Positions 8,186-52,328 of a DNA stretch of 64,000 bases are shown one piece after another. Within the stretch, counting starts at the first letter, position 1, and each line of letters opens with the position of its first letter. The notes below the pieces were generated by a model. The model had not been told where the DNA came from. It saw only the letters and a list, made by a program, of their open reading frames with translations, and did not search any database. Source of the DNA: Bacteroidia bacterium (GTDB taxonomy: Bacteria; Bacteroidota; Bacteroidia; UBA8524); contig JBBKVO010000018.1 of the NCBI GenBank assembly GCA_037968475.1, forward strand, positions 108,603-172,602. The letters run 5' to 3'. A program made the position numbers and the translations under genes.

Positions 8186-8956
8186 ATGTGGAAAGGATTT
8201 AATTTAAAATTGGAAGGCTTTGAAAATTTAGATCAGTACGAAACTATTGGCAAAAGTCTCTATACCGCAAATAAAAATCAAGCTATGAAAGGGCTTGAGG
8301 AATATACTACTAAAAATGGTCGAATTAATGGTACCGAAATGAAAAAAGATTGGTTTCCTGAAATTATGGCCGATATTTTTATTTCGCATTCACATAGTGA
8401 TGAAAAAATTGCTGTTGCTTTGTCTGGGTATCTTCATGATAATTTTGGTTTAAATACATTTATCGACTCTTGTGTATGGGGGTACGCAAACGACCTACTG
8501 TTTGAAATTGATAAAAAAAACTGTTCTTCTGGTGATAATCTTTTCAGCTATGAGGCCAGAAATTATTCAACTAGTAATGTTCACATGATGTTAGCTACAG
8601 CAATATCTAAAATGATGGATAAAACAGAGTGTGTATTCTTTTTGAATACACAAAACTCAATTACCACTAACGTAGCTCTGATCTCTCAAACTGAATCACC
8701 ATGGATTTATTTCGAATTAGCGATGACGAAAATCCTTAGAGCTAATATTCCAAATAGATTAAAAGAGGAAACTAGAACCATGTCTGAATCTCTTAATAAG
8801 AAATCTACATTTGTTTATGAGTTAGATTTGAGTGACTTGATAGAAATTAGTTTTACTCACTTATTAAGATGGGAAAGGGAAAATAAGCTTACAGCTGCAT
8901 CAGCACTCGATAAACTATATGAAATAACGAATAGTAATGGCATTATCAGAGGATAA
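8186..8956 (+). CDS. TIR-domain protein (candidate NADase-type immune TIR)
   Basis: Residues 63-98 are DIFISHSHSDEKIAVALSGYLHDNFGLNTFIDS, the betaA-alphaA-betaB TIR signature. Residues 139-178 are AISKMMDKTECVFFLNTQNSITT...SPWIYFEL, matching the vvvlS.ny..S.WC..EL block with a candidate catalytic Glu at residue 177. The gene is AT-rich. Confidence 0.6.
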   Translation: MWKGFNLKLEGFENLDQYETIGKSLYTANKNQAMKGLEEYTTKNGRINGTEMKKDWFPEIMADIFISHSHSDEKIAVALSGYLHDNFGLNTFIDSCVWGYANDLLFEIDKKNCSSGDNLFSYEARNYSTSNVHMMLATAISKMMDKTECVFFLNTQNSITTNVALISQTESPWIYFELAMTKILRANIPNRLKEETRTMSESLNKKSTFVYELDLSDLIEISFTHLLRWERENKLTAASALDKLYEITNSNGIIRG

Positions 8957-9359
8957 AATCAAACATTTAGAGTTTATACAGAACATAATTACTCGTATGA
9001 ACTCTAATTCATTTCAGATTAAAGGCTTGGCAGTCACCCTAACAACTGGTTTATTGGCAGTTTATGGTGCAAATCCAAAAGTGATTTTTATATTCATAGG
9101 GATACTACCCAATATACTTTTTTGGCTCTTGGATACTTATTACCTACAAATGGAGTGGAAATTTAGAGGGCTGTATAATGATATTATAAACCCAGATAAT
9201 ACTATACCTTCATTTAGTATGGATATTATCAAATACAAAGGAAAAGAGTACTCGTTTGTTAATGTACTATGCTCTAAATCAATACTTCCTTTGTACCTAT
9301 CAATTATTGTTATTTTACTTTTGCTTGGTATTGGAATTCAATATAATTCCTGTGCTTAA
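8937..9359 (+). CDS. Small membrane protein with three predicted TM helices; candidate effector partner of the TIR protein
   Basis: 140 aa. It overlaps the upstream gene by 20 nt, which suggests translational coupling. Hydrophobic segments lie at about residues 28-47, 50-70 and 116-136. Confidence 0.5.
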   Translation: MALSEDKIKHLEFIQNIITRMNSNSFQIKGLAVTLTTGLLAVYGANPKVIFIFIGILPNILFWLLDTYYLQMEWKFRGLYNDIINPDNTIPSFSMDIIKYKGKEYSFVNVLCSKSILPLYLSIIVILLLLGIGIQYNSCA

Positions 9360-9463: not shown

Positions 9464-10804
9464 TTACAAATCTTCTGCACGCTCTACCAACTTAGGGTCT
9501 AGCTGTTTAGATACTTTTGCTCCCAACTCGCGCAAAGTTTCGGCACGGCGTATAAGGTTTCCGCGCCCTTCGTAAAGCTTTTTCATACTGTCTTCATAAG
9601 CTCCCTGTGCCGATTTCATTTTCTTGCCCAAATCAATAAGGTCTTCGGTAAAGTTTACAAATTTATCGTACAAATCGCCGCCTTGCCTTGCTATCTCCAG
9701 CACGTTACGGTTTTGGTATTCTTGCTTCCAAATATTGGCTATGGTGCGCAGGGTGGCCAGCAGGGTACTACTGGTTACTATTACTATATTTTGATCGAAG
9801 GCATCATTAAATATTTCCGAATCGCTTTGCACTGCAACCGCAAAGGCCGATTCTATGGGGATAAACAACAATACAAAATCAGGCGTATCAATCTCGTACA
9901 ATTGGTGGTAGCGTTTTTCGCCCAGTTGTTTTATATGCTCGCGAACCGATTTTATATGCGCCTTTAGCCACGTTTGTTGCTCTTCTTGCGTATTGGCCGA
10001 TGAGTACCTTTCATACGCCGTTAGCGATACTTTTGAATCGACAATTATATTTTTATTGTCGGGCAGTTTTATAATAACGTCGGGCTGTTGGCGGCGACCT
10101 TCATCATTCACAAAACTTTCTTGCACACTATACTCTTGCCCCTTGGTAAGTCCGCTTTTCTCCAATACTTTCTCTAAAATCAGCTCACCCCAATTACCCT
10201 GTGTTTTGCTTTCGCCTTTCAGGGCTTTGGTTAGTCGGTTAGCATCCTCACGCATCCCTTGGTTTAGTTCGGTAAGTCCACGTATTTGCTCGGCTAGTCG
10301 GCTTTGCTCCTTGCTATTTTCAAGGTGGGTATCTTCCACCTTTTTCTTAAACTCATCCATCTTCTCCTTCAACGGGTTTAGCACTATATCTAAACTATCA
10401 CGGTTTTGACGAACAAATTTTTCGCTTTTCTCTTCAAATATTCTATTGGCAAGGTTTTCAAACTCTTTAGCTAAACGCTGCTGTAAGGCTTCAACCTCTT
10501 GTTTCTGTTCAGTAAGTTTTTGTTCAAGGTTTTGCAACTGGTTAGCCAGTCGGCTATTATCAGCCGTTAGGCTTAGGCTTTGTTTCTGGGCATCTTCAAA
10601 CTGGGTTTTAGCATCAAATAAAGTAGCCTGTAATGAGTTGGCTTTCTCTTCCAATCCTGCCTTCTCGGCAGTAATACGCGATATTTCTTGCCCACGCATA
10701 TCAAAATCGGTACGGGGCACCATTTGGGCTATTTTGTTTTTACCCAAAAGCCAGCCAATAAAAGCTCCTGCTACTAATCCCACCACTACAAACAGTATTT
10801 CCAT
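9464..10804 (-). CDS. rmuC: DNA recombination protein RmuC
   Basis: Coiled-coil N-terminal half and a conserved RmuC C-terminal nuclease-like domain (YHQLYEIDTPDFVLLFIPIESAF...). The ORF track extends to 10903. The start at MEILFVVVGLV (10804) is more likely, giving an N-terminal TM helix. Confidence 0.9.
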   Translation of the reverse strand: MEILFVVVGLVAGAFIGWLLGKNKIAQMVPRTDFDMRGQEISRITAEKAGLEEKANSLQATLFDAKTQFEDAQKQSLSLTADNSRLANQLQNLEQKLTEQKQEVEALQQRLAKEFENLANRIFEEKSEKFVRQNRDSLDIVLNPLKEKMDEFKKKVEDTHLENSKEQSRLAEQIRGLTELNQGMREDANRLTKALKGESKTQGNWGELILEKVLEKSGLTKGQEYSVQESFVNDEGRRQQPDVIIKLPDNKNIIVDSKVSLTAYERYSSANTQEEQQTWLKAHIKSVREHIKQLGEKRYHQLYEIDTPDFVLLFIPIESAFAVAVQSDSEIFNDAFDQNIVIVTSSTLLATLRTIANIWKQEYQNRNVLEIARQGGDLYDKFVNFTEDLIDLGKKMKSAQGAYEDSMKKLYEGRGNLIRRAETLRELGAKVSKQLDPKLVERAEDL

Positions 10805-27139: not shown

Positions 27140-28369
27140 TTATTCAATACTAATTTTTTGGTTTATCAAACCTTCGGCTGTTGTAATTTGGACGGTATAA
27201 ATGCCTTTGGCAACATTGCCTATATTTAATTGTAATACGGGGTTGGTAATTATTTTATTTGTATACACTACTTGCCCAATAGCATTGCTAACAGTTACTT
27301 GTTGAGCATTTGTATTCTCCAGCAATTCTAAAGTAAAAATACCGCTACTAGGATTGGGATAAATACTTACCGCACTATTATTTTTTACTGATTTAATACC
27401 TGTGATAACTTCGGCAGTTGGCCTGCGCCATACTGTGCTATCAGTACCTATAAGCAAAAAATGTCCGTTGGTAGCCACAGAAAACACTTGTGTTGATGCA
27501 GGTAATCCAATACTGATATCAACCCAAGTAGCTGCATTATCTTTTGATAAAAAAATACCGCTATTGGTACCAGCCAGTATATTTTTACCGCTAACAAAAA
27601 GATTATTTACGCCCAAATTGGTGAGGCCGCTATTAGAGATAGTCCAACTATCACCATTATTAGTAGAAATATAAACACCACCCCCACCTTTAGTCGCGGC
27701 TATAAGTGTAGTACCACTTTGTTGTATTGAGGTAAAGTTTTTATTGGTGATACCTGTGTTTTTGTTTTCCCAAGTAGTTCCATTATTAATAGAGCGAAAA
27801 ATCCCTTCCCCGCCTACACTGCTGCTGCTAACACCTGCGAAAATAGTATCACCTTTGGCAAACAGTGCTGTAACAGAGGCATTTGATGGTAGACCTGTAG
27901 TAGGCAGTGTAGCCCATTTATCTCCATTATCGGTTGATTTTGCTACTCCAAACCATGTGCCTGCCAATAAATCGTTTCCTTGTTCAACCATACAGAATAA
28001 ATAACCTGAGTAGGGACTGGTGGGTACATCCCAAGTATCGCCCTGATCTTTTGATACAAACACTGCAGCACCAAACCCACTAACACCAAGTATTACAACT
28101 GTATCTTTTATTATAACCGAACTCACGTTTTTATTAGAAAGCCCTACGTTTTTCTCCGTCCAAGAATATCCAAAGTCGGTGGATATATATACTCCCCCAG
28201 TATCTGTACCTGCAAAAACAGTTGAACCTTTTGAGCTAATGGCATTTACTTTACCAATGGAGAAATTTTGAGCTTGCGTCCACTGCGCTTGAGTAGATTG
28301 TGTAGATAGTAAAAGTGCAGTAATTGTAATTAATGCCACCAGTGTGTAGCGCGTGTAGTTGTTTTTCAT
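27140..28369 (-). CDS. BNR/Asp-box repeat protein with a T9SS type-A C-terminal domain
   Basis: Several S.D.G.TW Asp-box repeats (SKDQGDTW, STDNGDKW, SINNGTTW, STNNGDSW) and a C-terminal sorting domain (SIYPNPSSGIFTLEL...KGIYTVQITTAEGLINQKISIE). Confidence 0.65.
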   Translation of the reverse strand: MKNNYTRYTLVALITITALLLSTQSTQAQWTQAQNFSIGKVNAISSKGSTVFAGTDTGGVYISTDFGYSWTEKNVGLSNKNVSSVIIKDTVVILGVSGFGAAVFVSKDQGDTWDVPTSPYSGYLFCMVEQGNDLLAGTWFGVAKSTDNGDKWATLPTTGLPSNASVTALFAKGDTIFAGVSSSSVGGEGIFRSINNGTTWENKNTGITNKNFTSIQQSGTTLIAATKGGGGVYISTNNGDSWTISNSGLTNLGVNNLFVSGKNILAGTNSGIFLSKDNAATWVDISIGLPASTQVFSVATNGHFLLIGTDSTVWRRPTAEVITGIKSVKNNSAVSIYPNPSSGIFTLELLENTNAQQVTVSNAIGQVVYTNKIITNPVLQLNIGNVAKGIYTVQITTAEGLINQKISIE

Positions 28370-29175: not shown

Positions 29176-30366
29176 TTGGCAAACCGTATTATAACCCGCC
29201 GTGTATGGATGCTTTCGCTTATCAGCTTGTTTACTGATATGGCCAGCGAAATGCTATACCCTGTTATGCCCCTTTATCTTAAAAGCATTGGTTTTACCAT
29301 GGTTTTTATTGGTTTTTTGGAAGGCGCAGCAGAGTTTACGGCAGGTGTGAGTAAAGGGTATTTTGGCCAACTATCAGACAAATGGCAAAAACGTGTGCCG
29401 TTTATCCGTTGGGGATATACACTTAGTGCAGCTGCAAAACCTATGGTAGTGCTGTTTCGCAATCCTTTTTGGGTATTGTTTATGCGTGTTGGCGACCGCT
29501 TGGGTAAAGGGCTACGCACGGGTGCTCGCGATGCTCTTTTGGCAGATGAATGCACGCCTCAAAATCGGGGGCGTGTTTTTGGCTTGCACAGAGGCATGGA
29601 TACATTGGGTGCAACTTTGGGGGCATTATCTGCATTTTTAATCCTAACCGTTCAGCCCCAAGATTTTGAGAATGTATTTGTATGGGCTATCGTGCCTGGT
29701 ATTGTAGCTATTTTTCTTAGTTTTTTGCTGACAGAAAGCAAACGCAACAACGATTTTATCGCATCAAAAGAAAAGGTAGGATTTCTCTCGTACTTTAAAT
29801 ATTGGAAAACGGCCACCCCACAATACAGAAAACTAACAGGAGGCATAATTCTGTTTTATTTATTTAATACCTCAGACGTGTTTTTATTATTGTTTTTAAA
29901 ACATCAGGGATTTAGCGCAACGTTTATTATTGGCGCATATATACTTTACAATGCCTTTTATGCGCTGCTTTCATATCCTTTTGGGCATTTATCAGATAAA
30001 ATAGGCTACCAAAAAGTATATATGTTGGGCTTATTGTGTTTTGTAATTACGTATGCACTGCTGCCCTTCTCTACCCAATATTGGCAGGTGATAGTACTTT
30101 TTTCTATTTACGGAGCATTTTCAGCATTAACCGACGGTATTAGCAAAGCATGGATGAGCCAGCATTGCAAGCCCAATGAAAAAGGTACTGCTTATGGTTT
30201 TTTGGGGAGTAGTATTAGCATAGCTCTTGTCATCTCTAATACCCTAATAGGTTTTATTTGGGATGGCTTTACACCCGCCTACGCTCTTTTACTTTCAGCA
30301 GTGGGAGCACTGGCCTGCTTTGTCTATTTTTTGAGGTGGAAAGAAACTACACCCTTACCTAAATAA
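29176..30366 (+). CDS. MFS transporter
   Basis: 12-TM pattern with an MFS signature loop (GDRLGKGLR). Confidence 0.8.
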   Translation: MANRIITRRVWMLSLISLFTDMASEMLYPVMPLYLKSIGFTMVFIGFLEGAAEFTAGVSKGYFGQLSDKWQKRVPFIRWGYTLSAAAKPMVVLFRNPFWVLFMRVGDRLGKGLRTGARDALLADECTPQNRGRVFGLHRGMDTLGATLGALSAFLILTVQPQDFENVFVWAIVPGIVAIFLSFLLTESKRNNDFIASKEKVGFLSYFKYWKTATPQYRKLTGGIILFYLFNTSDVFLLLFLKHQGFSATFIIGAYILYNAFYALLSYPFGHLSDKIGYQKVYMLGLLCFVITYALLPFSTQYWQVIVLFSIYGAFSALTDGISKAWMSQHCKPNEKGTAYGFLGSSISIALVISNTLIGFIWDGFTPAYALLLSAVGALACFVYFLRWKETTPLPK

Positions 30367-33300
30367 TAATACCGTGCCTCTGTAATGGCTTCGGCGGTAA
30401 AAATAATCCATAATACTTATCTCGTAAACATATACTCCTTCAGGGGCAAACGCACCTCTATAATTACCGTCCCACTTATGTAATACCGAGTTTGACTCGA
30501 ACATTTTTTCACCCCAACGATTATAAATACGCATCTGGTACTCCCGTATCCCCTTAAAAATACCCTCAGCACCAAAAGTTGGGTTTAAGTCGCCTTCATC
30601 AGGAGTGAAAGCCGTAGGAATAAACAATGTATAATCAGGTGAGATAAAAATACGTTTCTGTGCGCTGTCAAAACACCAATTTTGGTTTCTCACCACCAAG
30701 TCTACCCAATACCTGCCTGTATCGTTATACTCATATACAAGATTTTGTGCATTAGAAGTACTTCCGTCTCCCATTCGCCAATCCCATGCCACTACATCAG
30801 TACTAGAAGCATCGGTAAAGGTAATTTGTGCCGTAAAAAACGATACCGAATCAGGCTTGGCGGTGAAATCAGCAACAGGTAGCTGGTACACGGTTATGAA
30901 ATTAGTAAAAGTAGAATCGTGTCTACACCCTTTATCCGTAAGTATTGTTAAAATGGGCGAATATGTGCCCCATTTGGTGTATGTATGTGTAGGGTTTTGC
31001 AAGGTATCTGAATACTTATCGCCAAACTGCCACGACCATTTGGTGATAGTGGTTTGAGGCACTTTGCTCTGGTCGGTAAATACTACTTCAAAAGGCTGGC
31101 ATCCATCAGGAGTAGGTGTAAAAATTTCTGCCTGAGGCAAAGGGTTTACACTTACAGTATTTTTTACGTTACCTATACACCCTTTATCACTGGTAACTAT
31201 TAACTCAACATTATAATCGCCCCAATTGTTATAGGCATGGGTAGGTCTTTTACCACTGCCTGTATAGCCGTCGTCAAAAATCCATTGGTAGCTTGTTGTG
31301 CTGCCACTACTTAGGGTTACATTGTCTGTAAACTGTGTTGTATCAAGTAGGCACACTTCGGTTGCAGTAAAGGCTGCTTTAGGTTCAGGGTGAATGGTAA
31401 TCTTTTTTATAGCAGTGTCTTTACAACCAAACTGCGACGCTACAATAAGTTGTATGTTTTTGTTTCCCTCAACAAAATAGATATTACTAATTACTTTTCC
31501 TGTATCGGTTTTGCCACTCAAATCCCAATCACGACTAACAATTGATCCAACATTTACTGTTGAAGAATCAGTAAATGTAGCAGGTAGTTTCACGCATTGG
31601 TCATTAAAATAAAAGTTAGCCTTGGGACGTGGATATATAGTAATGGTTTTTTGTGCACTATCTACACAATGCCCGCTAACTTCAACTTTTAGCTTTACTA
31701 AGTAGCTGCCTAGTACACTGTATTTGTGTTTGGGGGCTATGGAAGTGTCTGTATACCCATCACCCAATTGCCAAAACCTTGCCGTAGTAGTACCGTTTGA
31801 GAATGTACTATAATCAGAGAAAACTGCGGTATCGTACACACAAACATCGTTTATATCAAATTTCACATTGGGCATATCAAATGCTTCAATGGTTTTGCCT
31901 GCTGTATCGCTACACCCCTTATCGCTAATGGTTATCAATTGTGTTTGGTAAGTACCTGCTATACTATAGTTTTTTGGAGGTTTAGTAGTATTTAATGCCC
32001 CCGAACCATCTCCAAACGACCACAAACGTTTATCTATATACCCTTCATCAATGGTACTTCCATCTATAAATATTGCAGTATCTATATAGCAAATATCTCC
32101 AATGGCATAGGCTGCTTTGGGGTTTGAGTACACATCAACCACAGTGGTTTGGGTATCGGTACAGCCAAAATTGTTTTCTACCCAAAGCAGTATAGTATGA
32201 AGGCCTGTATCAACAGGTAACCATTTTTGAACTTGATTGGTATCAATAAAATATACGCCCTCCCACCATTGACGTTGCACCAAAGTATCGGTTGTGGGTT
32301 GCGTTAAATCAGTTAGTACAACCGTATCACCCTTGCAAACATTTGCAGTTTGTACTTTTGCCAAAGGGCGTGGGTATATTACAATAGCATTGCTAGTATC
32401 GTTCTTACACCCCATATCTGATATGGCTGTGTGCTTAACTACAAAAGTATCGGCGTATGGGTACAGGTATTTTGCGTGTTGTAAGCTATCGGTTTGCCCA
32501 TCACCATACTCCCATAAATATTTAAGTATTTGGGTGCTGTCAATTGAGCTCGTATCTGTAAAAGTAGCACTATCGGCATAGCATACATTAGCCAATGTAA
32601 AGCCTACTTTTGGCACAGGAAACACGGGCACTTGCTTAGTTACGGTGTCTACACAGCCGTGATTGGTAGTAGCTATCAGTTTAACTATGAAGTTGTACGC
32701 ACTATCGTAGTGTTTTATCGGGTTCTTGCTTGTACTAATGCTTCCATCGCCAAATTCCCACCGCCATTTGTTTATTGTTGAAGTTGTGCCTTCTATCACA
32801 CTACTATCAATAAATTTAATGGTATCGTTTTGGCAAAAATGCGGGACTAAAAACCTTGCCTCAAGTTGTTGGCGAACGGTAATAGTTGTTGTGCTAGAAT
32901 CTTGCGATTCGCAATCGTTTTGGTTATTGTTTATAGTTACTAAAGCCAAATTAAACGTACCCAAAGTATCGAAGGTTATTACCGGCCTAGCACTGTCTGA
33001 GTAAAAAGTATCGGCCAAATACCATCGGTATTCATCAGGTGTATAGTTGGTGTTGGGTATAAAAGTAGTGGGCACCCCTTTGCAAACCGCAGCAGTAGAA
33101 GTACTTATATAATGGGTAAGATTGCGAATGTTTGCCCCCGCTGCATAGCCATACGATTCTACATTTCCAAACCCATACGCCAAAGCATTAAAACCACTAT
33201 CGGCAGTTAAACTGTGGTTGCCTGCGGCAACAGTAGTTTGCGAGTACATATAGGTGGGATTTGAAGATACAAAAGACCATTGCACACTATTGTTATCCAA

Positions 33301-34428
33301 TCTAAACGTACCCGTATCGGCACGTTTCATCACAATATTAATATGATGATTAGTAATATTTTGATAGGGTGATGAGTACAAGGTAATCTCGTTGAGTTGT
33401 TGCTCAATTGGGCTTAAAATAGTCATCGAAGGGTCGCCTGTAATACCATCACAATTTTGAGTACGCTGAAATTGAGCCATTTTTGCAGGTTTGGTGCAGC
33501 GTACATAATTTGCTGTTGAACTTAAAAACTCGTGGTATTGCCCTTTTTGTAGATTTTTTTGAAAGGTATTATTTACATACACCTGTGTATTATCCGCTCC
33601 TGCCAATACCCTAAAATAATCACCGCCTGTGCGGGTTTTCATTGGTACGGTAATAAACTCTTTTCCCCACGCACTTACAGGGTACATTTGTTGGTATAGA
33701 TTATCTCCACTACCTGCACCTGTGCAGCCTAATACCGTAAACGAACTACCCGAAAATACAGAAATACGTTTGCACCCACCACTACCACTTGAAACTGAAA
33801 GAAGTCTTGAACCTGTAATATCAGAAGTAGAACGATACTGATATGCCTCGCCTTTATTAAGACTTATAGTAAAAGTGGTGTTTGCTTGCCTAAAGCCTGT
33901 TGTATTGTTTGCAGTAGGGGTAATTTCTACCAAAGTACTATCTTCAGTGGCTAATACCATGAACTGATTGCGATGGGCACTACCAGTTGAAGCCTGAGTA
34001 AAACTCATAGCATAATATTCTCTACCCAATGTAGCTGTGGGTAGTACTAAGGTAGCATCAGAACGTGCATTGGCGTGTATGTGTGAGTATACCACCACGG
34101 GATCGTTTGCAATAAGTTTAATCCCTTTGTTTTCTATACAATCATCGCACCCCACATAAGCTGAGGCGGGGGGTATATTTAATACGGTTACTGAGTTTGC
34201 CGATACACTAAAGTTTTGCGACCAACTTTGCCCCGGAATGCTTACTACACCTGAAGTAGATACATCAGAAGTAACATATAATTTCATATTTGATCCCGTA
34301 CCGTCTATATGTCCCATATAGCCAATCCAAAAATCAGTACCCTTGTTTGATGTTACTTGTGAAAAAGCACTAAATGATAGTAGCAATACAATTGCACTAA
34401 GCACTAGCCCTATATGTCTACCTCTCAT
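30355..34428 (-). CDS. Large PKD-repeat adhesin with a T9SS type-B (gliding motility-associated) C-terminal domain
   Basis: 1357 aa. Many PKD-like repeats (WEFGDGS...S...NP.H.Y). The C-terminal ~90 aa (YTLFIPTAFTPDEGDLNPTF...EGVYVYEISIMDYF...GTVLLFR) fit the type-B sorting domain. Its 3' end overlaps the MFS gene by 12 nt. Confidence 0.8.
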   Translation of the reverse strand: MRGRHIGLVLSAIVLLLSFSAFSQVTSNKGTDFWIGYMGHIDGTGSNMKLYVTSDVSTSGVVSIPGQSWSQNFSVSANSVTVLNIPPASAYVGCDDCIENKGIKLIANDPVVVYSHIHANARSDATLVLPTATLGREYYAMSFTQASTGSAHRNQFMVLATEDSTLVEITPTANNTTGFRQANTTFTISLNKGEAYQYRSTSDITGSRLLSVSSGSGGCKRISVFSGSSFTVLGCTGAGSGDNLYQQMYPVSAWGKEFITVPMKTRTGGDYFRVLAGADNTQVYVNNTFQKNLQKGQYHEFLSSTANYVRCTKPAKMAQFQRTQNCDGITGDPSMTILSPIEQQLNEITLYSSPYQNITNHHINIVMKRADTGTFRLDNNSVQWSFVSSNPTYMYSQTTVAAGNHSLTADSGFNALAYGFGNVESYGYAAGANIRNLTHYISTSTAAVCKGVPTTFIPNTNYTPDEYRWYLADTFYSDSARPVITFDTLGTFNLALVTINNNQNDCESQDSSTTTITVRQQLEARFLVPHFCQNDTIKFIDSSVIEGTTSTINKWRWEFGDGSISTSKNPIKHYDSAYNFIVKLIATTNHGCVDTVTKQVPVFPVPKVGFTLANVCYADSATFTDTSSIDSTQILKYLWEYGDGQTDSLQHAKYLYPYADTFVVKHTAISDMGCKNDTSNAIVIYPRPLAKVQTANVCKGDTVVLTDLTQPTTDTLVQRQWWEGVYFIDTNQVQKWLPVDTGLHTILLWVENNFGCTDTQTTVVDVYSNPKAAYAIGDICYIDTAIFIDGSTIDEGYIDKRLWSFGDGSGALNTTKPPKNYSIAGTYQTQLITISDKGCSDTAGKTIEAFDMPNVKFDINDVCVYDTAVFSDYSTFSNGTTTARFWQLGDGYTDTSIAPKHKYSVLGSYLVKLKVEVSGHCVDSAQKTITIYPRPKANFYFNDQCVKLPATFTDSSTVNVGSIVSRDWDLSGKTDTGKVISNIYFVEGNKNIQLIVASQFGCKDTAIKKITIHPEPKAAFTATEVCLLDTTQFTDNVTLSSGSTTSYQWIFDDGYTGSGKRPTHAYNNWGDYNVELIVTSDKGCIGNVKNTVSVNPLPQAEIFTPTPDGCQPFEVVFTDQSKVPQTTITKWSWQFGDKYSDTLQNPTHTYTKWGTYSPILTILTDKGCRHDSTFTNFITVYQLPVADFTAKPDSVSFFTAQITFTDASSTDVVAWDWRMGDGSTSNAQNLVYEYNDTGRYWVDLVVRNQNWCFDSAQKRIFISPDYTLFIPTAFTPDEGDLNPTFGAEGIFKGIREYQMRIYNRWGEKMFESNSVLHKWDGNYRGAFAPEGVYVYEISIMDYFYRRSHYRGTVLLFR

Positions 34429-44508: not shown

Positions 44509-44629
44509 TTACTCAAAATTTTAAGGCAAATACTAATTATTTATAATGAAAACTTGTCTAATCGCCGAATTCTATAAAAATTGCAACTGAGTTTATAAAA
44601 AAATTACTACTCTATCATTTGTATTTATT

Positions 44630-46390
44630 ATGAAAAAACTACTACTAACAGCAGTTGTGCTGGTTGCAGGTATTGCAGCGCATGCACAGTATTTCCAAAA
44701 TCTTTACGGCGTTCCCGTAAATGAAACTCTAACATCAGGTATCAATACTACAGCTTCGGGAAACGGCTATTTTATGGCTAGTTCTAACAGCGGCTTTGCT
44801 TTTGGTACTCCTTCAATTTCAGCTGCATTTGCAGACGTTACAGGTAATATACCCGGTGGCCCTTACTTTACTAACGAGTACATGGTAGTAAGCAATGCAG
44901 GTAATCCATTACAAACCCAAGACCCACAGGTATTTGAGTTTGACAACGGTTCTGGCTTTGGTATTATAGGCAGGTATACCGACCCTACAATGGCTAGCCC
45001 AAACACTGGAATTTATTTTCTTCAATTAGACCCTTCGGGAAATGTACTAAATTCTTTTAACTATACTGTTAACCCTAATGGCAGTAGCTTTTGGGATGTT
45101 ATAAAAGTGAGTGCTATTGCCGAATCGGCCACTGGTAAAGAAATATACGTTACAGGCTGGTTACAACCCAATTTTGCACAAGTAAACAGCTTTGTATTAA
45201 AAATTGACGCTGCCTCTGGAGCAATAATTTGGGGTTATGTATACGATGTTATCAACCCTAGCTTCTCGTCAAAAGATTTGTTTAACGACATTGTAGAAAG
45301 CCCTTATTCTAGTGAAGTTATTGTTGTGGGTCAAACTTATGATGGCACTACAACTTCTGATGGCTTGTTTATGCGTATTAATTCAAATACAGGAGCTGCT
45401 TTTCCTATCGTAAACCTTCACGGAACAGCAACCTCATGGGATGCTTTTAATGCTATAACCGTAGCTAACAGCCCTGCCGCTGGTGGCCCTGGTTTTGCAA
45501 TTGGTGGTACAAGCGATGCTAACGGTACTAATGATTTTTGGTTTACTTTAGTTGATCCTACAGGTACTTTTATCACTTCAACCCTACACGATTATAGTAT
45601 AAACCCAGGCGCCAACGATATTTGCGAAGATATAATTGAGCGCAAAAACACATTTGGCAAATATGAATACTACATGGCTGGCAGCACCTTTAAAGGAGCA
45701 TTTGGCAAGTACGATGTATTAGTAATAAAAACTGATGCTAAGGGTAATGGTGTTGCCAATGGAGAATTTACTTATGGTAGCGCAGGTAACGATTTTGGTA
45801 AAAGCATTGACCAATATAACGGTACAGGTAATGATGGCCTAAGCATATTTGGCACTTATGATGATAATGTTATAGGCGGTTCTGATATGTACTTGGTAAG
45901 AGCTTATTTTAATGGCGCATCAGGTTGTAACGAAAAATTTAGCACACCAACCCCAAAAAGTGGCCCTAAACTATACTTACGCTATGATGTAAAAGATATA
46001 GCCAAGTTTAAAGACAACAAATTCTTATGGAAACAAACTACTGCCAAAGACAAAAATCTTTGCTTTGCTTGGACAATAACAGGTGGCAGTAACGCCCGTG
46101 TAGCTCCAGCCGAACCTAGCGGAGATAAAGAAGCAAAAGTCAGCCCTAACCCAATTGCACAAGGCACACAATATGCCGCCCTTGAAGTTGAAGTAGAAAA
46201 CCCGACCACAGCACAAGTGGCTATTTATGATATGCTTGGCCGTACCTACTATGCTCAAACCTTTACATTAGTAAAAGGTAAAAACAACATAGTGCTTGAT
46301 ATTAACAACGTTAATATGGCACAAGGTATGTATACTGTTAAAGTACAAGGTGAAAACCTAAACCAAAACATTATATGGTTAGTAAAATAG
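44630..46390 (+). CDS. T9SS type-A C-terminal-domain secreted protein, paralog 1 of 4
   Basis: Signal peptide ending ...AHAQYFQNLYG. Conserved C-terminal block GGSNARVAPAEP.GDKEAKVSPNPIAQG... plus a sorting-domain tail. Confidence 0.7.
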   Translation: MKKLLLTAVVLVAGIAAHAQYFQNLYGVPVNETLTSGINTTASGNGYFMASSNSGFAFGTPSISAAFADVTGNIPGGPYFTNEYMVVSNAGNPLQTQDPQVFEFDNGSGFGIIGRYTDPTMASPNTGIYFLQLDPSGNVLNSFNYTVNPNGSSFWDVIKVSAIAESATGKEIYVTGWLQPNFAQVNSFVLKIDAASGAIIWGYVYDVINPSFSSKDLFNDIVESPYSSEVIVVGQTYDGTTTSDGLFMRINSNTGAAFPIVNLHGTATSWDAFNAITVANSPAAGGPGFAIGGTSDANGTNDFWFTLVDPTGTFITSTLHDYSINPGANDICEDIIERKNTFGKYEYYMAGSTFKGAFGKYDVLVIKTDAKGNGVANGEFTYGSAGNDFGKSIDQYNGTGNDGLSIFGTYDDNVIGGSDMYLVRAYFNGASGCNEKFSTPTPKSGPKLYLRYDVKDIAKFKDNKFLWKQTTAKDKNLCFAWTITGGSNARVAPAEPSGDKEAKVSPNPIAQGTQYAALEVEVENPTTAQVAIYDMLGRTYYAQTFTLVKGKNNIVLDINNVNMAQGMYTVKVQGENLNQNIIWLVK

Positions 46391-46416
46391 TTTAGATAAA
46401 ACACTAAATTAATTTA

Positions 46417-46447
46417 AAGCTACCCCTTTTGGGGTAGCTTTTTTTTT
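46417..46447 (+). terminator. Rho-independent terminator (module copy 1)
   Basis: AAAGCTACCCC-TTTT-GGGGTAGCTTT followed by a T-run. Confidence 0.7.
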
Positions 46448-46466
46448 GTAAAACCAAAAAGGGTAG

Positions 46467-46517
46467 TTCACAAAGTCAAAAGGGTAGTTCACAAATTCAA
46501 AATGGTATTTCACAAAG
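46467..46517 (+). promoter_or_regulatory. Three TTCACAAA(G/T) direct repeats phased at 21 bp
   Basis: Repeats start at 46467, 46488 and 46508/9. They are upstream of the conserved CAAATTGTATACACA promoter-proximal block. Confidence 0.5.
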
Positions 46518-46582
46518 TGAACATGTTTTAACAAATAGTATTTGTGCAAATTGTATACACAAATTTTAAAACACTATCTATT

Positions 46583-48340
46583 ATGAAAAACATTATTCTA
46601 ATTGTCTTTTTACTAGCCGGTTTCACTAGCAAGGCTCAGTATTTCCAACATCTTTACGGTCAAGACCCCGCTATTGGCAGCTTAATAGGAAATGGCATGA
46701 ACACCAAAGCAACAGGGCCCGGACATTTAATAGGGGGTTTACATATAAAAGATTTATTAATACCCCCCGGTCCGTATGATTTTTACAACTTTGCTCTGCA
46801 TGTTATTAGAACCGATGCTGACGGCAGGTTTGCTTCTCCAAACGATTTTAATAATACTTATAGGCTAACTAACTCAGCTGGTGCTGCTATCCGTTTCTCA
46901 GCAGGTTCTGTTGTCGAGTTTAGTGATGGCAGTGGCTATGGTGCTATAGGTACTTATTTTTACGAGCCTCTGCCTCGCTCGTTTGGTATTGCCTACATCC
47001 GCTTAGATGTACTCGGTAATGTAATTAGTTCACAAGGCTACGCTTTACCTTATAGGGGCGGTAGCTATATTGATTTGAGGGGAATGAAAGAATCAGTATC
47101 AAACCCCGGCGATCTATTTGCTACAGGCACATCTGCAAATTCAAATGGTGATGAGTATATGTGGGCACTTAAAATTGACCAAACCGGCACTCTTTTATGG
47201 GGGAATTTATATGATTTTGGATTAGGTATTATTGAAGATCCAGCTGATTTAATTGAAAGCCCTTATGCCTCAGAACTTATTGTTGTAGGAGGGGTGAAAT
47301 CATCGTTAAGAGCCTTATGGATGGTTTTAGACCCTAACACAGGCAGTGTGATTTCAGCCGATGAGATGTCGTCTTTTTACGGTACAACTGAGATTTTAAA
47401 CTCCATTGATGTAAGTGATGACCCTTTAATGCCCGGTTTTATACTTTCAGGTGTAGTGGATGAAAAGGTATGGGTAGTAAAAACCGACCAAATGGGCACT
47501 TACCAATGGGGAGGAATATATCAACCCTCATTTAGTCAAGTAGAATATATGTATGGTTTTGATGCCGTTGGTCGCCTAAAAGAAGATGGCTCTGATGGCT
47601 ATAATTATGAATACTTTATTACTGGAGCGATATATGTTACATCTGCACCAAACCCTGATGCTTTTGTTTTTAAACTAGACCGTTGGGGCAACCCCGTCAA
47701 CCCAAATGCATTATTTATTTATAACTATGGTATTGAAGAAACAGGATTGGATGTAGATGTAAATATAAGTGGCAGTGGCGATGGTGTTACTATGTATGGT
47801 ATTGGTGAAGATAACAATATCCCTACCAAAGAAATATATGTTGTTAAGGCCTATTTTAATGGTGTTTCTGGTTGCAATGAGCGGTTTGAAGATTTACAAC
47901 AAAATGTAGGAGAACTTTTTCCTGTTAATTCGTTAGGCGTTGCATTAACTCCACTAAGCACAGAAATTCTTACATTATACAATATCGAGAATGAATTAGA
48001 TAAAGAGATTTGCTATAACACTACAATACCCAGTGGTAGCAATGCACGCGTAGCTCCTGCTGAACCTAAAGGTGATAAAGAAGCAAAAATTAGCCCTAAC
48101 CCTATTGCACAAGGCGTTCAATATGCTAATATAGACGTTGATATTGAACAACCTACAACTGCACAAGTATCGGTTTACGATATGCTAGGCCGTACCTACT
48201 ACTCGCAAACATTTACTTTGGTAAAAGGCAAAAACAACCTAGTGCTTGATATTAGTAATATTAACATGGCACAAGGTATGTATACTGTGAAAATACAAGG
48301 TGATAACCTAAACCAAAATATAGCATTACTTGTAAAATAA
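46583..48340 (+). CDS. T9SS type-A C-terminal-domain secreted protein, paralog 2 (start chosen at MKNIILIVF)
   Basis: The ORF-track start at 46544 lies inside the conserved promoter block. A signal peptide begins at 46583. The C-terminal ~100 aa are ~90% identical to the other paralogs. Confidence 0.7.
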   Translation: MKNIILIVFLLAGFTSKAQYFQHLYGQDPAIGSLIGNGMNTKATGPGHLIGGLHIKDLLIPPGPYDFYNFALHVIRTDADGRFASPNDFNNTYRLTNSAGAAIRFSAGSVVEFSDGSGYGAIGTYFYEPLPRSFGIAYIRLDVLGNVISSQGYALPYRGGSYIDLRGMKESVSNPGDLFATGTSANSNGDEYMWALKIDQTGTLLWGNLYDFGLGIIEDPADLIESPYASELIVVGGVKSSLRALWMVLDPNTGSVISADEMSSFYGTTEILNSIDVSDDPLMPGFILSGVVDEKVWVVKTDQMGTYQWGGIYQPSFSQVEYMYGFDAVGRLKEDGSDGYNYEYFITGAIYVTSAPNPDAFVFKLDRWGNPVNPNALFIYNYGIEETGLDVDVNISGSGDGVTMYGIGEDNNIPTKEIYVVKAYFNGVSGCNERFEDLQQNVGELFPVNSLGVALTPLSTEILTLYNIENELDKEICYNTTIPSGSNARVAPAEPKGDKEAKISPNPIAQGVQYANIDVDIEQPTTAQVSVYDMLGRTYYSQTFTLVKGKNNLVLDISNINMAQGMYTVKIQGDNLNQNIALLVK

Positions 48341-48372
48341 AATAGTATTTATAATCATCATATCTGTTTTAT

Positions 48373-48406
48373 AAAAGCTACCTCAAAAGGGTAGCTTTTT
48401 TTTCAC
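48373..48406 (+). terminator. Rho-independent terminator (module copy 2)
   Basis: AAAGCTACC-TCAAAA-GGGTAGCTTT followed by a T-run. Confidence 0.7.
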
Positions 48407-48473
48407 AAACCCAAAATAGTGTTTCACAAAACAGAAACTGCATTTCACAAAGTCAAATGCCCATTTCACAAAG
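48401..48473 (+). promoter_or_regulatory. Four TTTCACAAA(C/A/G) direct repeats at exactly 21-bp spacing
   Basis: Repeats start at 48401, 48422, 48443 and 48464. Confidence 0.55.
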
Positions 48474-48537
48474 TAATCACACTGTTGCAGTTAATATTCT
48501 ACAAATTGTATGTACTAATATTAAAATACTATCTACA

Positions 48538-50292
48538 ATGAAAAAAATCTTTTTAATCACCTTAGCCTTTGCTTCTATTGGTGCAAGTGCTCAATTCTTT
48601 CAACACAACTATGGCACTAAAGACAGTGAGAATGCAAGCAATGGGTTAAACACCACTGCAACAGGGTTGGGACATTTTATTGTCTCAAGTACTTTTAATT
48701 CTCCAACAAATGAAATTTTAGCGGTTAATACCGATATTAATGGAAATGTTGCCGCCTTTAATAATTTATATACTTTAACTCATTCATCTGGAGTATTGCT
48801 AGATATTGACAATACTTTACCTATCGAATTTAGTAACGGAAGCGGTTATGGTATTTTTGGCAGATTTCACGACCCAGGTCTTAGCATACCTACAGGTATT
48901 TTTTACCTTGAAATTGATCCCGCAGGAAACATTTTAAATGTTACTGAATACAATCCTATTAGCACTGTCGGCACAAATTATTATGTAGTAGAAGTTGCTG
49001 ATGTAACCGAATCATTAGGTGGTGGTTTCTTTTATATTACGGGGACTGTTGACCCCAGTATTATGGGTAACTTTTGGATTTTTGTTATAAAAATTGACCA
49101 AGCAGGAAATATAATATGGTCTATTGTAGACGACCTAGTAAACTCAACATCGGTATCACGTGATTGGGCAAAAGGGATTGTCGAAAGTCCGTATTCTCCT
49201 TCGGGTACTCCTGAATTGGTGGTTGTAGGACAAACCTATGATGGAGGAGGTTCAGCAGATGCATTTCTCGTAAGGCTTGATGCCAATAGCGGAACATCAC
49301 TAGCACCTGTAAATTTATATGGCACTACTACCAGTAATGAGATTTTTAATTCTATTAAGATAGCAAACAACACTATATCAGGTGCGCCCGGCTTTATTAT
49401 TGGCGGTAGTAGTGATATAAATAGTGGTGGTGCAAATCGTGATTTTTGGCTACTTCAAACAGATGACCAAGGTAATCCATTTTGGAGCTACACTTATGAT
49501 TATAATGGTAGTTCAGGCAATAACGATTACAGTACAGATGTAATTGAAAGGCTTAATACTGGGGGATTATATGAATACTATCTTGGCGGGCATACCAATA
49601 ATGGAAACCTTGGTGGTGCCGATTTGGTAGTTATAAAAACTGATAATTTAGGTAATGCCGTTGGTCAATTTACTTATGGTAGCCCTTCTGATGATGTTGG
49701 CACTTATCTTGACTATTACGACCTCGTGGGGCCTGATGGCTTAAGCGTTTTTGGTACATACAATGGAGGTGGTATAGGTTTAATGGATACATACCATGTA
49801 AAAGCTTATTTTAATGGTTTATCTGGTTGTAATGAAAATCTTGGTATGACCCATAATTTAATAGGCCCCGGCCTATTTATGAACTTACAGGATAGATTAA
49901 AAACAACATTTAAAAATGTTTCTATGACATCCGCCCTATCTAGTGCGAAAGATGCTAACCTTTGTTTCAACTTCTCTATACCCGGTGGTAGCAATGCACG
50001 CGTTGCTCCTGCTGAACCCAAAGGAGATAAAGAAGCAAAAATTAGCCCTAACCCAATTGCTCAAGGTGTACAATATGCCAATGTAGAAATTGATATTGAA
50101 AAACCTACAACCGCCCAAGTATCGGTGTACGATATGCTTGGTCGTAGCTACTATGCACAAACCTTTACTTTGGTAAAAGGCAAAAACAACCTAGTGCTTG
50201 ATATTAGTAATATTAACATGGCACAAGGTATGTATACTGTGAAAATACAAGGTGAAAACCTTAACCAAAACATAGCATTACTTGTGAAATAG
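48538..50292 (+). CDS. T9SS type-A C-terminal-domain secreted protein, paralog 3 (start at MKKIFLITLAF)
   Basis: The signal peptide starts at 48538. The ORF-track 5' extension covers the promoter region. Confidence 0.7.
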   Translation: MKKIFLITLAFASIGASAQFFQHNYGTKDSENASNGLNTTATGLGHFIVSSTFNSPTNEILAVNTDINGNVAAFNNLYTLTHSSGVLLDIDNTLPIEFSNGSGYGIFGRFHDPGLSIPTGIFYLEIDPAGNILNVTEYNPISTVGTNYYVVEVADVTESLGGGFFYITGTVDPSIMGNFWIFVIKIDQAGNIIWSIVDDLVNSTSVSRDWAKGIVESPYSPSGTPELVVVGQTYDGGGSADAFLVRLDANSGTSLAPVNLYGTTTSNEIFNSIKIANNTISGAPGFIIGGSSDINSGGANRDFWLLQTDDQGNPFWSYTYDYNGSSGNNDYSTDVIERLNTGGLYEYYLGGHTNNGNLGGADLVVIKTDNLGNAVGQFTYGSPSDDVGTYLDYYDLVGPDGLSVFGTYNGGGIGLMDTYHVKAYFNGLSGCNENLGMTHNLIGPGLFMNLQDRLKTTFKNVSMTSALSSAKDANLCFNFSIPGGSNARVAPAEPKGDKEAKISPNPIAQGVQYANVEIDIEKPTTAQVSVYDMLGRSYYAQTFTLVKGKNNLVLDISNINMAQGMYTVKIQGENLNQNIALLVK

Positions 50293-50324
50293 TATTTGTG
50301 CTGATAAATATTCATCACTTTATA

Positions 50325-50350
50325 AAAGCTACCTCAAAAGGGTAGCTTTT
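50325..50350 (+). terminator. Rho-independent terminator (module copy 3)
   Basis: AAAAGCTACC-TCAAAA-GGGTAGCTTTT. Confidence 0.65.
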
Positions 50351-50351
50351 A

Positions 50352-50408
50352 TTTTACAAACCCAAAACAGTATTTCACAAAACAGAAAGCTTATTTCACA
50401 AAGTGAAG
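50352..50408 (+). promoter_or_regulatory. Three TTT(C/T)ACAAA repeats at 21-bp spacing
   Basis: Repeats start at 50352 (degenerate), 50373 and 50394. Confidence 0.5.
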
Positions 50409-50467
50409 TCTTTTTTCCCCATTCCATTTATTCAAATTGTATACACATATTTTAAAAAACTATCATT

Positions 50468-52234
50468 ATGAAAAAACTATTTCTAATTGTATTTGCATTA
50501 ACCTCAATTGGAGCCAATGCACAGTATTTCCAACATCTGTATGGAAGCGTTGACGAAGAGCGCGATATATCAGGAGTGAACACCTTTATACAGCCACAGG
50601 GACATCTTATGGCATCAAACAATATTAACAACCAACTAGGTACATCAAACCTTATTGTTACCTACACTGATATAGATGGAAGAATACTAGGAGCACCAAA
50701 CTTTAATAATGAGTATGTGATAACCTCACCTATTTCGGGAAACGCAGTATCAATATCATCGGCCAAAGTATTTGAGCTTGAAAATGGCAGTGGCTTTGGC
50801 GTAGTTGGCTTATACAGAGACAATTTATTACCCCAACCCGGTATTTTTTATTTACAGCTTGACCCTATGGGTAATGCGCTAACTATATACGATTATACAC
50901 CCAACTCGGGTATTATAGCTTGGTATAGCCTATTAAATGTGGGAGCAGTATCAAAATCACCCGGTACTGATGATTTGTACATTACAGGTGGAACAGAATC
51001 TAGCGCCGCAGCAAATTTTTTATACGCTTTAAAAATAAATACTATGACAGGTACTATACTTTGGTCGAGTTTTTATGATATAGTGCAACCAAATTCCCCC
51101 AAAAAAGAATCGGCTGCAGATATTATAGAAAGCCCCTATATGCCATTAGGTCAAACTGAAGTAATAATTGTAGGTAGCGGATATGATGTAACTTCAACTA
51201 GTATTGATGGATTCCTTATCCGCTTAAATGCAAATACGGGGATCCCTATGGTGGGTTGGGCTAACTACTATGGTACCACAGCAACTTCTGAAAAATTTTC
51301 AAGTATCGATATTGCCAGCAGCACCGCAGGTGGCTCAGATGGTTTTATTATTGGCGGAACAGCAGCAGGGGGCGATTTTTGGCTAATAAAAGTTGATCCT
51401 ACGGGCTCAACCATTTGGTCTCACGTATACGATAACAGCTTATTACCGGGTAATAGTGATGAATGCCACGATGTAAAAGAAAGACTTAATACATCAGGTA
51501 ATTATGAGTATTACGCTTGTGGAACAACGGGAAACATTAGCGGAAGCTCTGATATAATGGTAATAAAAACCGATGATTTGGGAAATGGAGTAGCAAACGG
51601 AGAGTTCACCTACAACAGCGGCATAGGTGTGGTTGATATGGGATATGCGCTTGACCAATATAATGGTACTGGAGCTGATGGACTAAGCATTTATGGTATA
51701 TCCTTCAACGGCAGTATTGGTCTAGCCGATCAATATCTTATCAAAGCATACTTTAATGGTAAATCAGGCTGTAACGAATCATTTAGCACTCCTAACGCAC
51801 AACTGGGAGCTGATTGGTATAGCGAAACTACATTGGATTATTTTGACAACTTCTCAGTAAGTACAATGTTATCAACCCAAGGTTCTGTTAGCGATTTTAA
51901 CCTTTGCTATAGGCGCAGAATAATCGGTGGTAGCAATGCACTAGTAGCTCCCGATGAACCTAAAGGTGATAAAGAAGCAAAAGTTAGCCCTAACCCTATT
52001 GCACAAGGCACACAATATGCGGCTCTTGAAGTTGAGATTGAGCAGCCTACAACCGCCCAAGTATCAGTGTACGATATGCTTGGCCGTAGCTACTATGCAC
52101 AAACCTTTACATTAGTAAAAGGCAAAAACAACTTAATGCTTGATATTAGCAATATCAATATGGCACAAGGAATGTATACAGTGAAAATACAAGGAGAAAA
52201 CCTTAATAAAAATATAGTACTGCTGGTAAAATAA
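50468..52234 (+). CDS. T9SS type-A C-terminal-domain secreted protein, paralog 4
   Basis: Same architecture and conserved C-terminal block as paralogs 1-3. Confidence 0.7.
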   Translation: MKKLFLIVFALTSIGANAQYFQHLYGSVDEERDISGVNTFIQPQGHLMASNNINNQLGTSNLIVTYTDIDGRILGAPNFNNEYVITSPISGNAVSISSAKVFELENGSGFGVVGLYRDNLLPQPGIFYLQLDPMGNALTIYDYTPNSGIIAWYSLLNVGAVSKSPGTDDLYITGGTESSAAANFLYALKINTMTGTILWSSFYDIVQPNSPKKESAADIIESPYMPLGQTEVIIVGSGYDVTSTSIDGFLIRLNANTGIPMVGWANYYGTTATSEKFSSIDIASSTAGGSDGFIIGGTAAGGDFWLIKVDPTGSTIWSHVYDNSLLPGNSDECHDVKERLNTSGNYEYYACGTTGNISGSSDIMVIKTDDLGNGVANGEFTYNSGIGVVDMGYALDQYNGTGADGLSIYGISFNGSIGLADQYLIKAYFNGKSGCNESFSTPNAQLGADWYSETTLDYFDNFSVSTMLSTQGSVSDFNLCYRRRIIGGSNALVAPDEPKGDKEAKVSPNPIAQGTQYAALEVEIEQPTTAQVSVYDMLGRSYYAQTFTLVKGKNNLMLDISNINMAQGMYTVKIQGENLNKNIVLLVK

Positions 52235-52265: not shown

Positions 52266-52295
52266 ATGTATGCTGAAAAGGGGGCTTTTGTCCCC
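52266..52295. terminator. Hairpin terminator between convergent genes
   Basis: AAAAGGGGGC-TTTTG-TCCCCTTTTT. Confidence 0.5.
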
Positions 52296-52328
52296 TTTTT
52301 CTTTTATCTCAATTGTTGATTAATCCAA

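Follow-up and report, generated by a model that had tools for sequence, protein, structure and literature searches.

The 64-kb window considered here (the whole stretch of DNA that was analysed, 64,000 nucleotides of contig JBBKVO010000018.1 from a Bacteroidia bacterium) contains four tandem paralogous genes on the plus strand at 44.6-52.2 kb (44630-46390, 46583-48340, 48538-50292 and 50468-52234). The three intergenic regions between these genes carry arrays of a short direct repeat with the core TTCACAAA, which recurs with a period of 21 bp, and the probable role of these arrays is the subject of this work; each copy of the repeat is called a box in the following. Every paralog encodes a protein of ~586 amino acids (aa) with a signal peptide and a C-terminal sorting domain of the type IX system for protein secretion (T9SS), assigned as Por_Secre_tail by Pfam domains. 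The N-terminal ~480 residues of the paralogs are 39-52% identical and the last ~105 residues nearly invariant; on the DNA level, the 3' ends (last 330 nt, encoding the sorting domain) share 78-89% identity and the remaining gene 57-62%. The AlphaFold model of paralog 2 is all-beta, with a predicted local distance difference test score (pLDDT) of 83, and sequence and fold searches of the PDB with the paralogs returned only weak, generic beta-propeller matches (TM-score at most 0.39). The features of the locus are as follows.

44630-46390, plus strand: paralog 1, 586 aa, T9SS cargo with a Por_Secre_tail domain; its own upstream region, 44509-44629, has no box
46416-46441, plus strand: intrinsic terminator hairpin of paralog 1, followed by a T-run (terminator scan; RNA fold -19.3 kcal/mol, z -5.9)
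46446-46516, plus strand: array 1, period 21, with boxes at 46446 (degenerate, TTGTAAAA), 46467, 46488 and 46509 (TTCACAAA)
46547-46582, plus strand: promoter-proximal block CAAATTGTATACACAAATTTTAAAACACTATCTATT with the near-palindrome TTGTATACACAA, ending at the ATG of paralog 2 (alignments)
46583-48340, plus strand: paralog 2, 585 aa, with a signal peptide, a predicted beta-propeller-like N-terminal part and a T9SS C-terminal domain
48373-48399, plus strand: terminator hairpin of paralog 2, its T-run extending into the first box (RNA fold -13.7 kcal/mol, z -5.5)
48402-48472, plus strand: array 2, four exact TTCACAAA boxes at 48402, 48423, 48444 and 48465
48502-48537, plus strand: promoter-proximal block before paralog 3, conserved in alignments
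48538-50292, plus strand: paralog 3, 584 aa, T9SS cargo
50323-50351, plus strand: terminator hairpin of paralog 3 (RNA fold -15.1 kcal/mol, z -5.2)
50353-50402, plus strand: array 3, boxes at 50353 (TTTACAAA), 50374 and 50395 (TTCACAAA)
50433-50467, plus strand: promoter-proximal block before paralog 4, conserved in alignments
50468-52234, plus strand: paralog 4, 588 aa, T9SS cargo, followed by an unrelated terminator at 52275-52300 and no boxes

Exact copies of TTCACAAA number ten in the window (shuffles: 4.4 +/- 2.4 per window), nine of which lie, all on the plus strand, in the three intergenic regions between the paralogs, and the tenth at 10107. When one mismatch is allowed, the plus strand of the window holds seven box pairs at a distance of 21 bp, five at 42 bp, and one each at 19, 28 and 40 bp; all pairs at 21 or 42 bp fall in the three intergenic regions, and the minus strand has no box pairs at the same tolerance. 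These counts bear out a preliminary description of the locus, which had reported 21-bp-phased copies before paralogs 2, 3 and 4. The positions given there were right, but the start of the repeat had been counted inconsistently by one base, from the core in the first region and from the preceding T in the second and third. The arrays consist of 3+1, 4 and 2+1 copies of (T)TTCACAAA(G) in a single orientation, and each opens with a box in register beside the T-run of the terminator, which is degenerate in two of the regions (46446, TTGTAAAA; 50353, TTTACAAA). Since two boxes of the first region read GTTCACAAA, the invariant core is TTCACAAA. Tandem Repeats Finder detects the first array only (46457-46518, period 21, 90% matches) and misses arrays 2 and 3 because their spacers have diverged.

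As had also been proposed, each array is preceded by an intrinsic terminator and followed by a conserved promoter-proximal block, CAAATTGTATACACAAATTTTAAAACACTATCTATT-ATG. The three terminator hairpins fold with -13.7 to -19.3 kcal/mol (z -5.2 to -5.9), the block can be aligned between regions, and a comparison with Rfam gave only a chance-level Phe_leader match on the terminator (E = 0.44, 26.6 bits against a gathering score of 55). Each paralog is a separate transcription unit bounded by terminators. Exact and one-mismatch searches found no boxes upstream of paralog 1 (44509-44629), in agreement with the preliminary description, or downstream of paralog 4. A short inverted repeat, TTTCACAAAGTGAA, which had been pointed out as the last copy in two of the regions, is present at 46508 and 50394. 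Relatives, however, have GTGG, GTCA or GTAG instead, and since it is not kept there the inverted repeat is probably incidental. Three other T9SS-cargo genes of the window (Por_Secre_tail or CHU_C; 2108-2857, 27140-28369 and 30355-34428) have no phased boxes upstream, so that the arrays are specific to this paralog family and not a feature of cargo genes generally.

To follow the arrays within the lineage, syntenic loci of ~20 kb were fetched from public collections via homologues of paralog 2 (fetched loci carry L numbers). The syntenic site holds two paralogs in L001/L002 and L003, three in L126, which derives from the 3.81-Mb chromosome OZ252261.1 of a Bacteroidia metagenome-assembled genome (MAG), and four in the window. 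All internal intergenic regions of these relatives share the hairpin, two to three good boxes preceded by a degenerate first one, the exact 21-bp period and the promoter-proximal block, and the length of the arrays varies by whole 21-bp units only. The first paralog, located downstream of an MGMT-like gene, lacks boxes in the window, L001, L003 and L126. The earlier suggestion that paralog 1 may be regulated differently from the others fits this pattern, as it is array-free in all four genomes examined. Conservation was compared among six distinct intergenic regions of the window and of L001, L003 and L126, each taken from the penultimate box to the promoter block. Here, 15 of 16 box columns are invariant (97.9% pairwise identity), as against 9 of 45 other columns (54.2%; Fisher p = 2.4e-7). 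The varying number of paralogs and their highly similar 3' ends suggest concerted evolution or unequal crossing-over. Homogenisation alone, however, would be insufficient as an explanation, because the boxes were spared while the spacers were scrambled. In L004, a single-copy homologue (59%) stands in a different genomic context and has no phased boxes upstream; the locus has a single phased pair, probably a chance occurrence, within coding sequence. A hairpin GCTGCCC...GGGGTAGC with a T-run precedes this homologue (L004 9820-9850) and is similar to the window terminators, the upstream gene being unrelated.

The position of the arrays relative to the start codon is equally constant: in each of the seven regions of the window and its relatives, 73-74 bp separate the start of the last box from the ATG. 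Consensus scans gave no confident sigma-70 or Bacteroidota promoter match in the promoter-proximal block, the sigma-70 scan yielding 22 promoter-like sites and 29 in shuffles, and by eye no clean Bacteroidota TTG / TAnnTTTG pair was found at a sensible distance. An element resembling TAttTGTG or TAttTCTG lies 30 nt after the last box and is a weak candidate for the Bacteroidota -7 box. Were this candidate to prove genuine, the -33 region and the last box would overlap. The block also contains the near-palindrome TTGTATACACAA (46552-46563, 48507-48518 and 50438-50449 in the window), which is a perfect palindrome, TTGTGTACACAA, in L001 (9970-9981) and the right half of which, CACAAA, resembles the box. 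It might serve a dimeric regulator as a second operator, or be an element of the 5' untranslated region.

The same box was then sought across public collections, in genomes with a pattern of two phased boxes (TTTCACAAA-N12-TTTCACAAA) and in metagenomes with three phased TTCACAAA boxes; each scan gave at least 120 matches. Among the genome matches listed are L099, which is part of the same MAG as L126, a Bacteroidales site discussed below, many CACAAAG repeats of 10/11 bp and scattered single matches. Most of these were set aside as chance, as CACAAAG 10/11-bp repeat elements or as the Bacteroidales site. The 10-11-bp elements are a separate observation: in many Bacteroidota (loci L008, L013, L014, L017, L020, L021, L030, L085, L092 with three copies, L105, L111 and L123), (T)TTCACAAAG-like units follow each other every 10-11 bp and are flanked by inverted CTTTGTG copies, sharing a 10-mer with the boxes. 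They look like repeats of the REP (repetitive extragenic palindromic) or MITE (miniature inverted-repeat transposable element) type.

The metagenome matches listed are mostly plain 21-bp tandem repeats, in which the whole unit is identical, and only matches with diverged spacers are informative. Twelve of those listed (L147, L161, L165, L174, L175, L180, L189, L199, L207, L212, L213 and L214) form one such class, which reads ..caTTCACAAAG-N12-caTTCACAAAG-N12-cgTTCACAAA(a/g)aacgc... Wherever a downstream gene could be called, these arrays are located 73-118 bp upstream of a signal-peptide gene, and several of the genes in question encode Por_Secre_tail, PKD or DUF5122 propeller domains. The array of L147 stands directly upstream of a gene for a response regulator with REC and LytTR domains. 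Taken over the loci outside the lineage of the window, the box with 21-bp spacing, in the same orientation and with unrelated spacers, is found in Cytophagales, Flavobacteriales and Chitinophagaceae. The motif search that the preliminary description had recommended as a way to a regulon was made across public collections, where it led to the same box and spacing beside LytTR genes. The source genome is absent among the genome-scan matches listed, and no regulon could be defined for it.

The association was also examined in the reverse direction, from the regulator back to the arrays. Homologues of the L147 regulator led to six non-redundant regulator loci, comprising 117 kb, which were searched on both strands. 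They contain seven box pairs at a spacing of 21 bp, three at 42 bp and at most one at any other spacing between 9 and 60 bp. The Cyclobacteriaceae orthologues of the regulator adjoin a convergent gene for a kinase with 7TMR-DISM and HisKA_2 domains. In L247 (regulator identity 78%) four boxes are found upstream of the regulator gene, in L251 (62%) a degenerate in-phase array takes the same position, and in L249 (72%) degenerate in-phase arrays precede the adjacent Beta_helix gene and a nearby Calx-beta gene. More distant members of the regulator family (237 aa, 38-42% identity) are co-transcribed with genes for kinases with TPR and HisKA_2 domains. Beside such kinase-regulator operons, the divergent region of L255 (39%) has two cATTCACAAA boxes 21 bp apart and that of L256 (42%) three boxes (TTTACAAA/TTCACAAA/TTTACAAA); in both cases the boxes point at a neighbouring gene for a secreted protein. 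L258 has one exact box and a weak pair in phase. In three of these loci, which belong to Flavobacteriales and Cyclobacteriaceae, rpoN (sigma-54) is located directly downstream of the LytTR regulator or within 8 kb of it (L256 10780-12237, L247 713-2173 and L249 1604-3067); by eye, the arrays are unlike sigma-54 promoters.

A profile of the regulator subfamily, run against all fetched loci, detected a member in L224, a locus that had originally been fetched by the pattern scan. There, an array of four boxes lies ~580 bp downstream of an operon of a TPR-kinase and a LytTR regulator and ~100 bp upstream of a signal-peptide gene. The same profile found more distant LytTR regulators next to two-box matches in L071 (Lacihabitans soyangensis KCTC 23259, an isolate) and L080 (Chitinophagaceae). 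In both loci the boxes stand beside kinase and LytTR-regulator operons, and L080 has a second array 68 bp before the gene for a Por_Secre_tail protein. Two loci fetched as distant paralog homologues show related arrangements with other sequences. L253 (50% homologue) has ACACTTATC-N12-ACACTTACA, a 9-bp repeat with a 12-bp spacer that differs from the window box. In L254 (45%), ACACTTATT-N12-ACACTTATT is located directly downstream of a REC and LytTR gene of another subfamily (29% identity to P0106, of the L147 regulator subfamily), and a second LytTR system flanks another T9SS protein with GTGAAC repeats 21 bp apart. L254 (8987-18323) thus contains two kinase/LytTR-regulator systems flanking T9SS-cargo genes, each with a 21-bp-phased repeat of its own (ACACTTATT and GTGAAC, respectively), an arrangement which suggests that LytTR control of T9SS cargo is common in this group.

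From these comparisons, we consider it fairly likely that a response regulator with a LytTR domain, part of a two-component system, binds to the TTCACAAA(G) boxes phased at 21 bp. The assignment can be narrowed to LytTR because the box is selectively conserved and because the same box and spacing stand beside LytTR genes in other Bacteroidota. Published LytTR sites are direct repeats of 9 bp separated by 12 bp (in a minority by 11 or 13 bp) and located just upstream of the -35 element; conservation extends to their length, spacing and position but not to their sequence, and autoregulation of the regulator gene is typical (PMC6193735). In such operators, the repeats are located about 4-11 bp upstream of the -35 or -33 promoter element. 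In the window, the repeat unit is a direct repeat of 9-10 bp with a non-conserved spacer of 12-13 bp, 21 bp from centre to centre. Every array has at least two direct repeats of ~9 bp, and the exact 21-bp period leaves a spacer within the published range of 12 bp (11-13; PMC6193735) that is not conserved, with 54% identity in spacers as against 98% in boxes. The window arrays are similar to LytTR operators such as AgrA P2/P3, the ComE boxes, the PlnC/PlnD repeats and the HdrR/BrsR sites, with which they share 9-bp repeats and a 12-bp spacer. The presence of the box before the regulator's own gene in other Bacteroidota likewise matches the autoregulation known from these systems (PMC6193735). 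The partner kinases of the related Bacteroidota systems are of the TPR and HisKA_2 or the 7TMR-DISM and HisKA_2 type. Response regulators of the OmpR/PhoB family likewise bind tandem direct repeats (e.g. pho boxes) in a head-to-tail manner. These repeats, however, have a period of 10-11 bp, one helical turn, whereas that of the window is 21 bp, and the unit contains no box copy at half the period.

The predicted mechanism would be as follows. A kinase would sense a signal and act on the LytTR regulator. The latter would attach to one DNA face as an oligomer arranged head to tail, upstream of the promoter of each of paralogs 2-4, and all three T9SS-cargo genes would be switched jointly, most probably on. 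Paralog 1, with its different upstream region, would escape LytTR control. The phased layout, the conservation of the boxes and their association with LytTR genes across lineages are observed; from this comparative sequence evidence, we infer the existence of this regulator in the source genome, its binding at the arrays, activation rather than repression and the position of the promoter. The preliminary description had considered cooperative sites for a direct-repeat regulator and, as an option, an UP-like curved element. The former is supported by the conservation of the boxes and their recurrence beside LytTR genes, whereas the latter is not favoured, as TTCAC is conserved no less than the A-run and the spacers are neither conserved nor phased A-tracts.

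Several observations weigh against the LytTR assignment. The box is unlike the classical LytTR consensus from Firmicutes and Proteobacteria. Three to four boxes exceed the usual pair: the known systems have two, whereas the window has three to four in phase, before genes for T9SS cargo of a Bacteroidota member. The likely promoter is also at another distance from the last box than in the Cyclobacteriaceae arrays, where a TTG follows 6-7 nt after the last box, and no promoter could be assigned by consensus in the window. A profile search and Pfam revealed no LytTR regulator among the window open reading frames scanned or in the 20-kb loci of the window's relatives, and for both regulator queries the 120 best homologues listed include none on a contig of the window's lineage. 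It is also important to note that the regions compared for conservation are related by paralogy or orthology and border on 3' gene ends in concerted evolution, so that their sequences are not independent. Finally, neither TTCACAAAG nor its complement fits the ACCACTTAT-type repeats described for LytTR sites (PMC6193735); agreement with the classical consensus is not a strictly defining criterion. The repeats of distant homologues, ACACTTAT(T/C), do resemble the ACCACTTAT type.

Another direct-repeat regulator might bind the boxes instead, chiefly one of the AraC/XylS family, which may be a hybrid two-component system's AraC-type output domain and whose dimers would occupy half-sites every 21 bp. 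A half-site spacing of 21 bp is classical for AraC I1-I2, which is like the window arrays in having direct repeats of this period upstream of a promoter. Moreover, TTTCACAAA-N12-TTTCACAAA occurs in at least eight Bacteroidales genomes (L023, L027, L064, L083, L091, L095, L098 and L118, with a conserved spacer), where it has an AraC-family (HTH_18) regulator gene on one side and a divergent gene of the acetyltransferase-like type on the other, and there it is probably the operator of the adjacent AraC-family regulator. This identical 9-mer pair at the same spacing beside an AraC-family gene counts against our assignment, and the box alone is not diagnostic of a family. The conservation of the 12-bp Bacteroidales spacer (aaaCAyCAtTat) is, however, what is expected for a long AraC half-site, which measures ~17 bp and is conserved over most of the unit, whereas the arrays of the window and of the Cyclobacteriaceae conserve a box of 9-10 bp only. 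In addition, there is no HTH_18 or HTH_AraC match among the window open reading frames scanned (most, not all, of those of at least 100 aa), and the adjacent regulator is of the LytTR type in every non-Bacteroidales case examined. Altogether we regard an AraC-type regulator as unlikely at this locus.

The remaining alternatives do without a specific regulator. The arrays could represent a functionless 21-bp minisatellite that arose by slippage at the 3' arm and T-run of the terminator, was copied by tandem duplication and has been kept similar by gene conversion together with the 3' gene ends. In line with this, the whole units of array 1 are ~90% alike, including a GGGTAG that matches the 3' arm of the terminator, the paralogs are most similar in their last 330 nt (78-89% as against 57-62% elsewhere) and vary in number from two to four in close relatives, and most listed metagenome matches to three phased boxes are plain tandem repeats. 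Homogenisation would keep the spacers too, however, and these are only ~54% identical, whereas the boxes are ~98% identical. Since the same box and spacing also recur with unrelated spacers in unrelated contexts beside LytTR regulators, we consider a minisatellite quite improbable. Highly improbable is a role without any specific protein, with the arrays acting as intrinsically curved DNA, as an UP-like element stimulating RNA polymerase or through binding of a nucleoid-associated protein: the region is A+T-rich and upstream of the promoter, with a repeat every two helical turns, but TTCAC is among the invariant positions, the base content of the spacers varies (e.g. ACAGAAACTGCAT and GTCAAATGCCCAT), the A-runs within a unit are not 10-11 bp apart, and the co-occurrence with one regulator subfamily would stay unexplained. 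We give the least credence to the idea that the repeats have to do with recombination and not with transcription, as substrates or cassette junctions through which paralogs are gained and lost. Two, three or four copies at one syntenic site and the recurrence of hairpin, array and block at every internal junction would be compatible with such a function. Yet there is no recombinase gene near the locus, the long similar 3' gene ends suffice for unequal crossing-over, and elsewhere arrays also precede unrelated single-copy genes.

Apart from the arrays, the window encodes, at 8186-9359 on the plus strand, a 256-aa ThsB-like TIR protein (PADLOC PDLC00430, E = 3e-73), whose gene overlaps the start of that for a membrane protein of 140 aa, a match to the candidate defence family PDC-M50A (E = 3e-42). 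Both proteins are without a Pfam match, and the two may constitute a two-gene anti-phage system.

With regard to novelty, the layout of the presumed LytTR sites is already known, and it is the box, its presence in at least three phased copies, the host phylum and the T9SS-cargo targets that are not described. In full-text literature searches, neither a LytTR binding motif or regulon characterised in Bacteroidota nor a connection of LytTR to T9SS cargo came up, and a search for the motif string returned primer sequences only. More tentatively, we propose that TTCACAAA(G) every 21 bp serves as operator for an uncharacterised but conserved two-component system of Bacteroidota, composed of a HisKA_2 kinase of the TPR or 7TMR-DISM type and a LytTR regulator and present in Cytophagales, Flavobacteriales, Chitinophagales and the lineage of the window, which controls a regulon of T9SS cargo and secreted proteins through at least three phased boxes. 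We regard this wider proposal as quite possible rather than probable.

The locus shows regulatory arrays travelling with tandem gene duplications, and the box arrays may also account for the expression of one gene of a tandem family independently of the others. LytTR response regulators are numerous in environmental Bacteroidota, and a short box in strict 21-bp phase, found repeatedly beside one regulator subfamily and upstream of secreted proteins across several orders, provides a testable definition of a regulon. If the proposal is true, three or more phased boxes would imply regulator oligomers larger than the canonical dimer, and a single motif would open up the regulons of the most abundant and least studied response-regulator family of the phylum.

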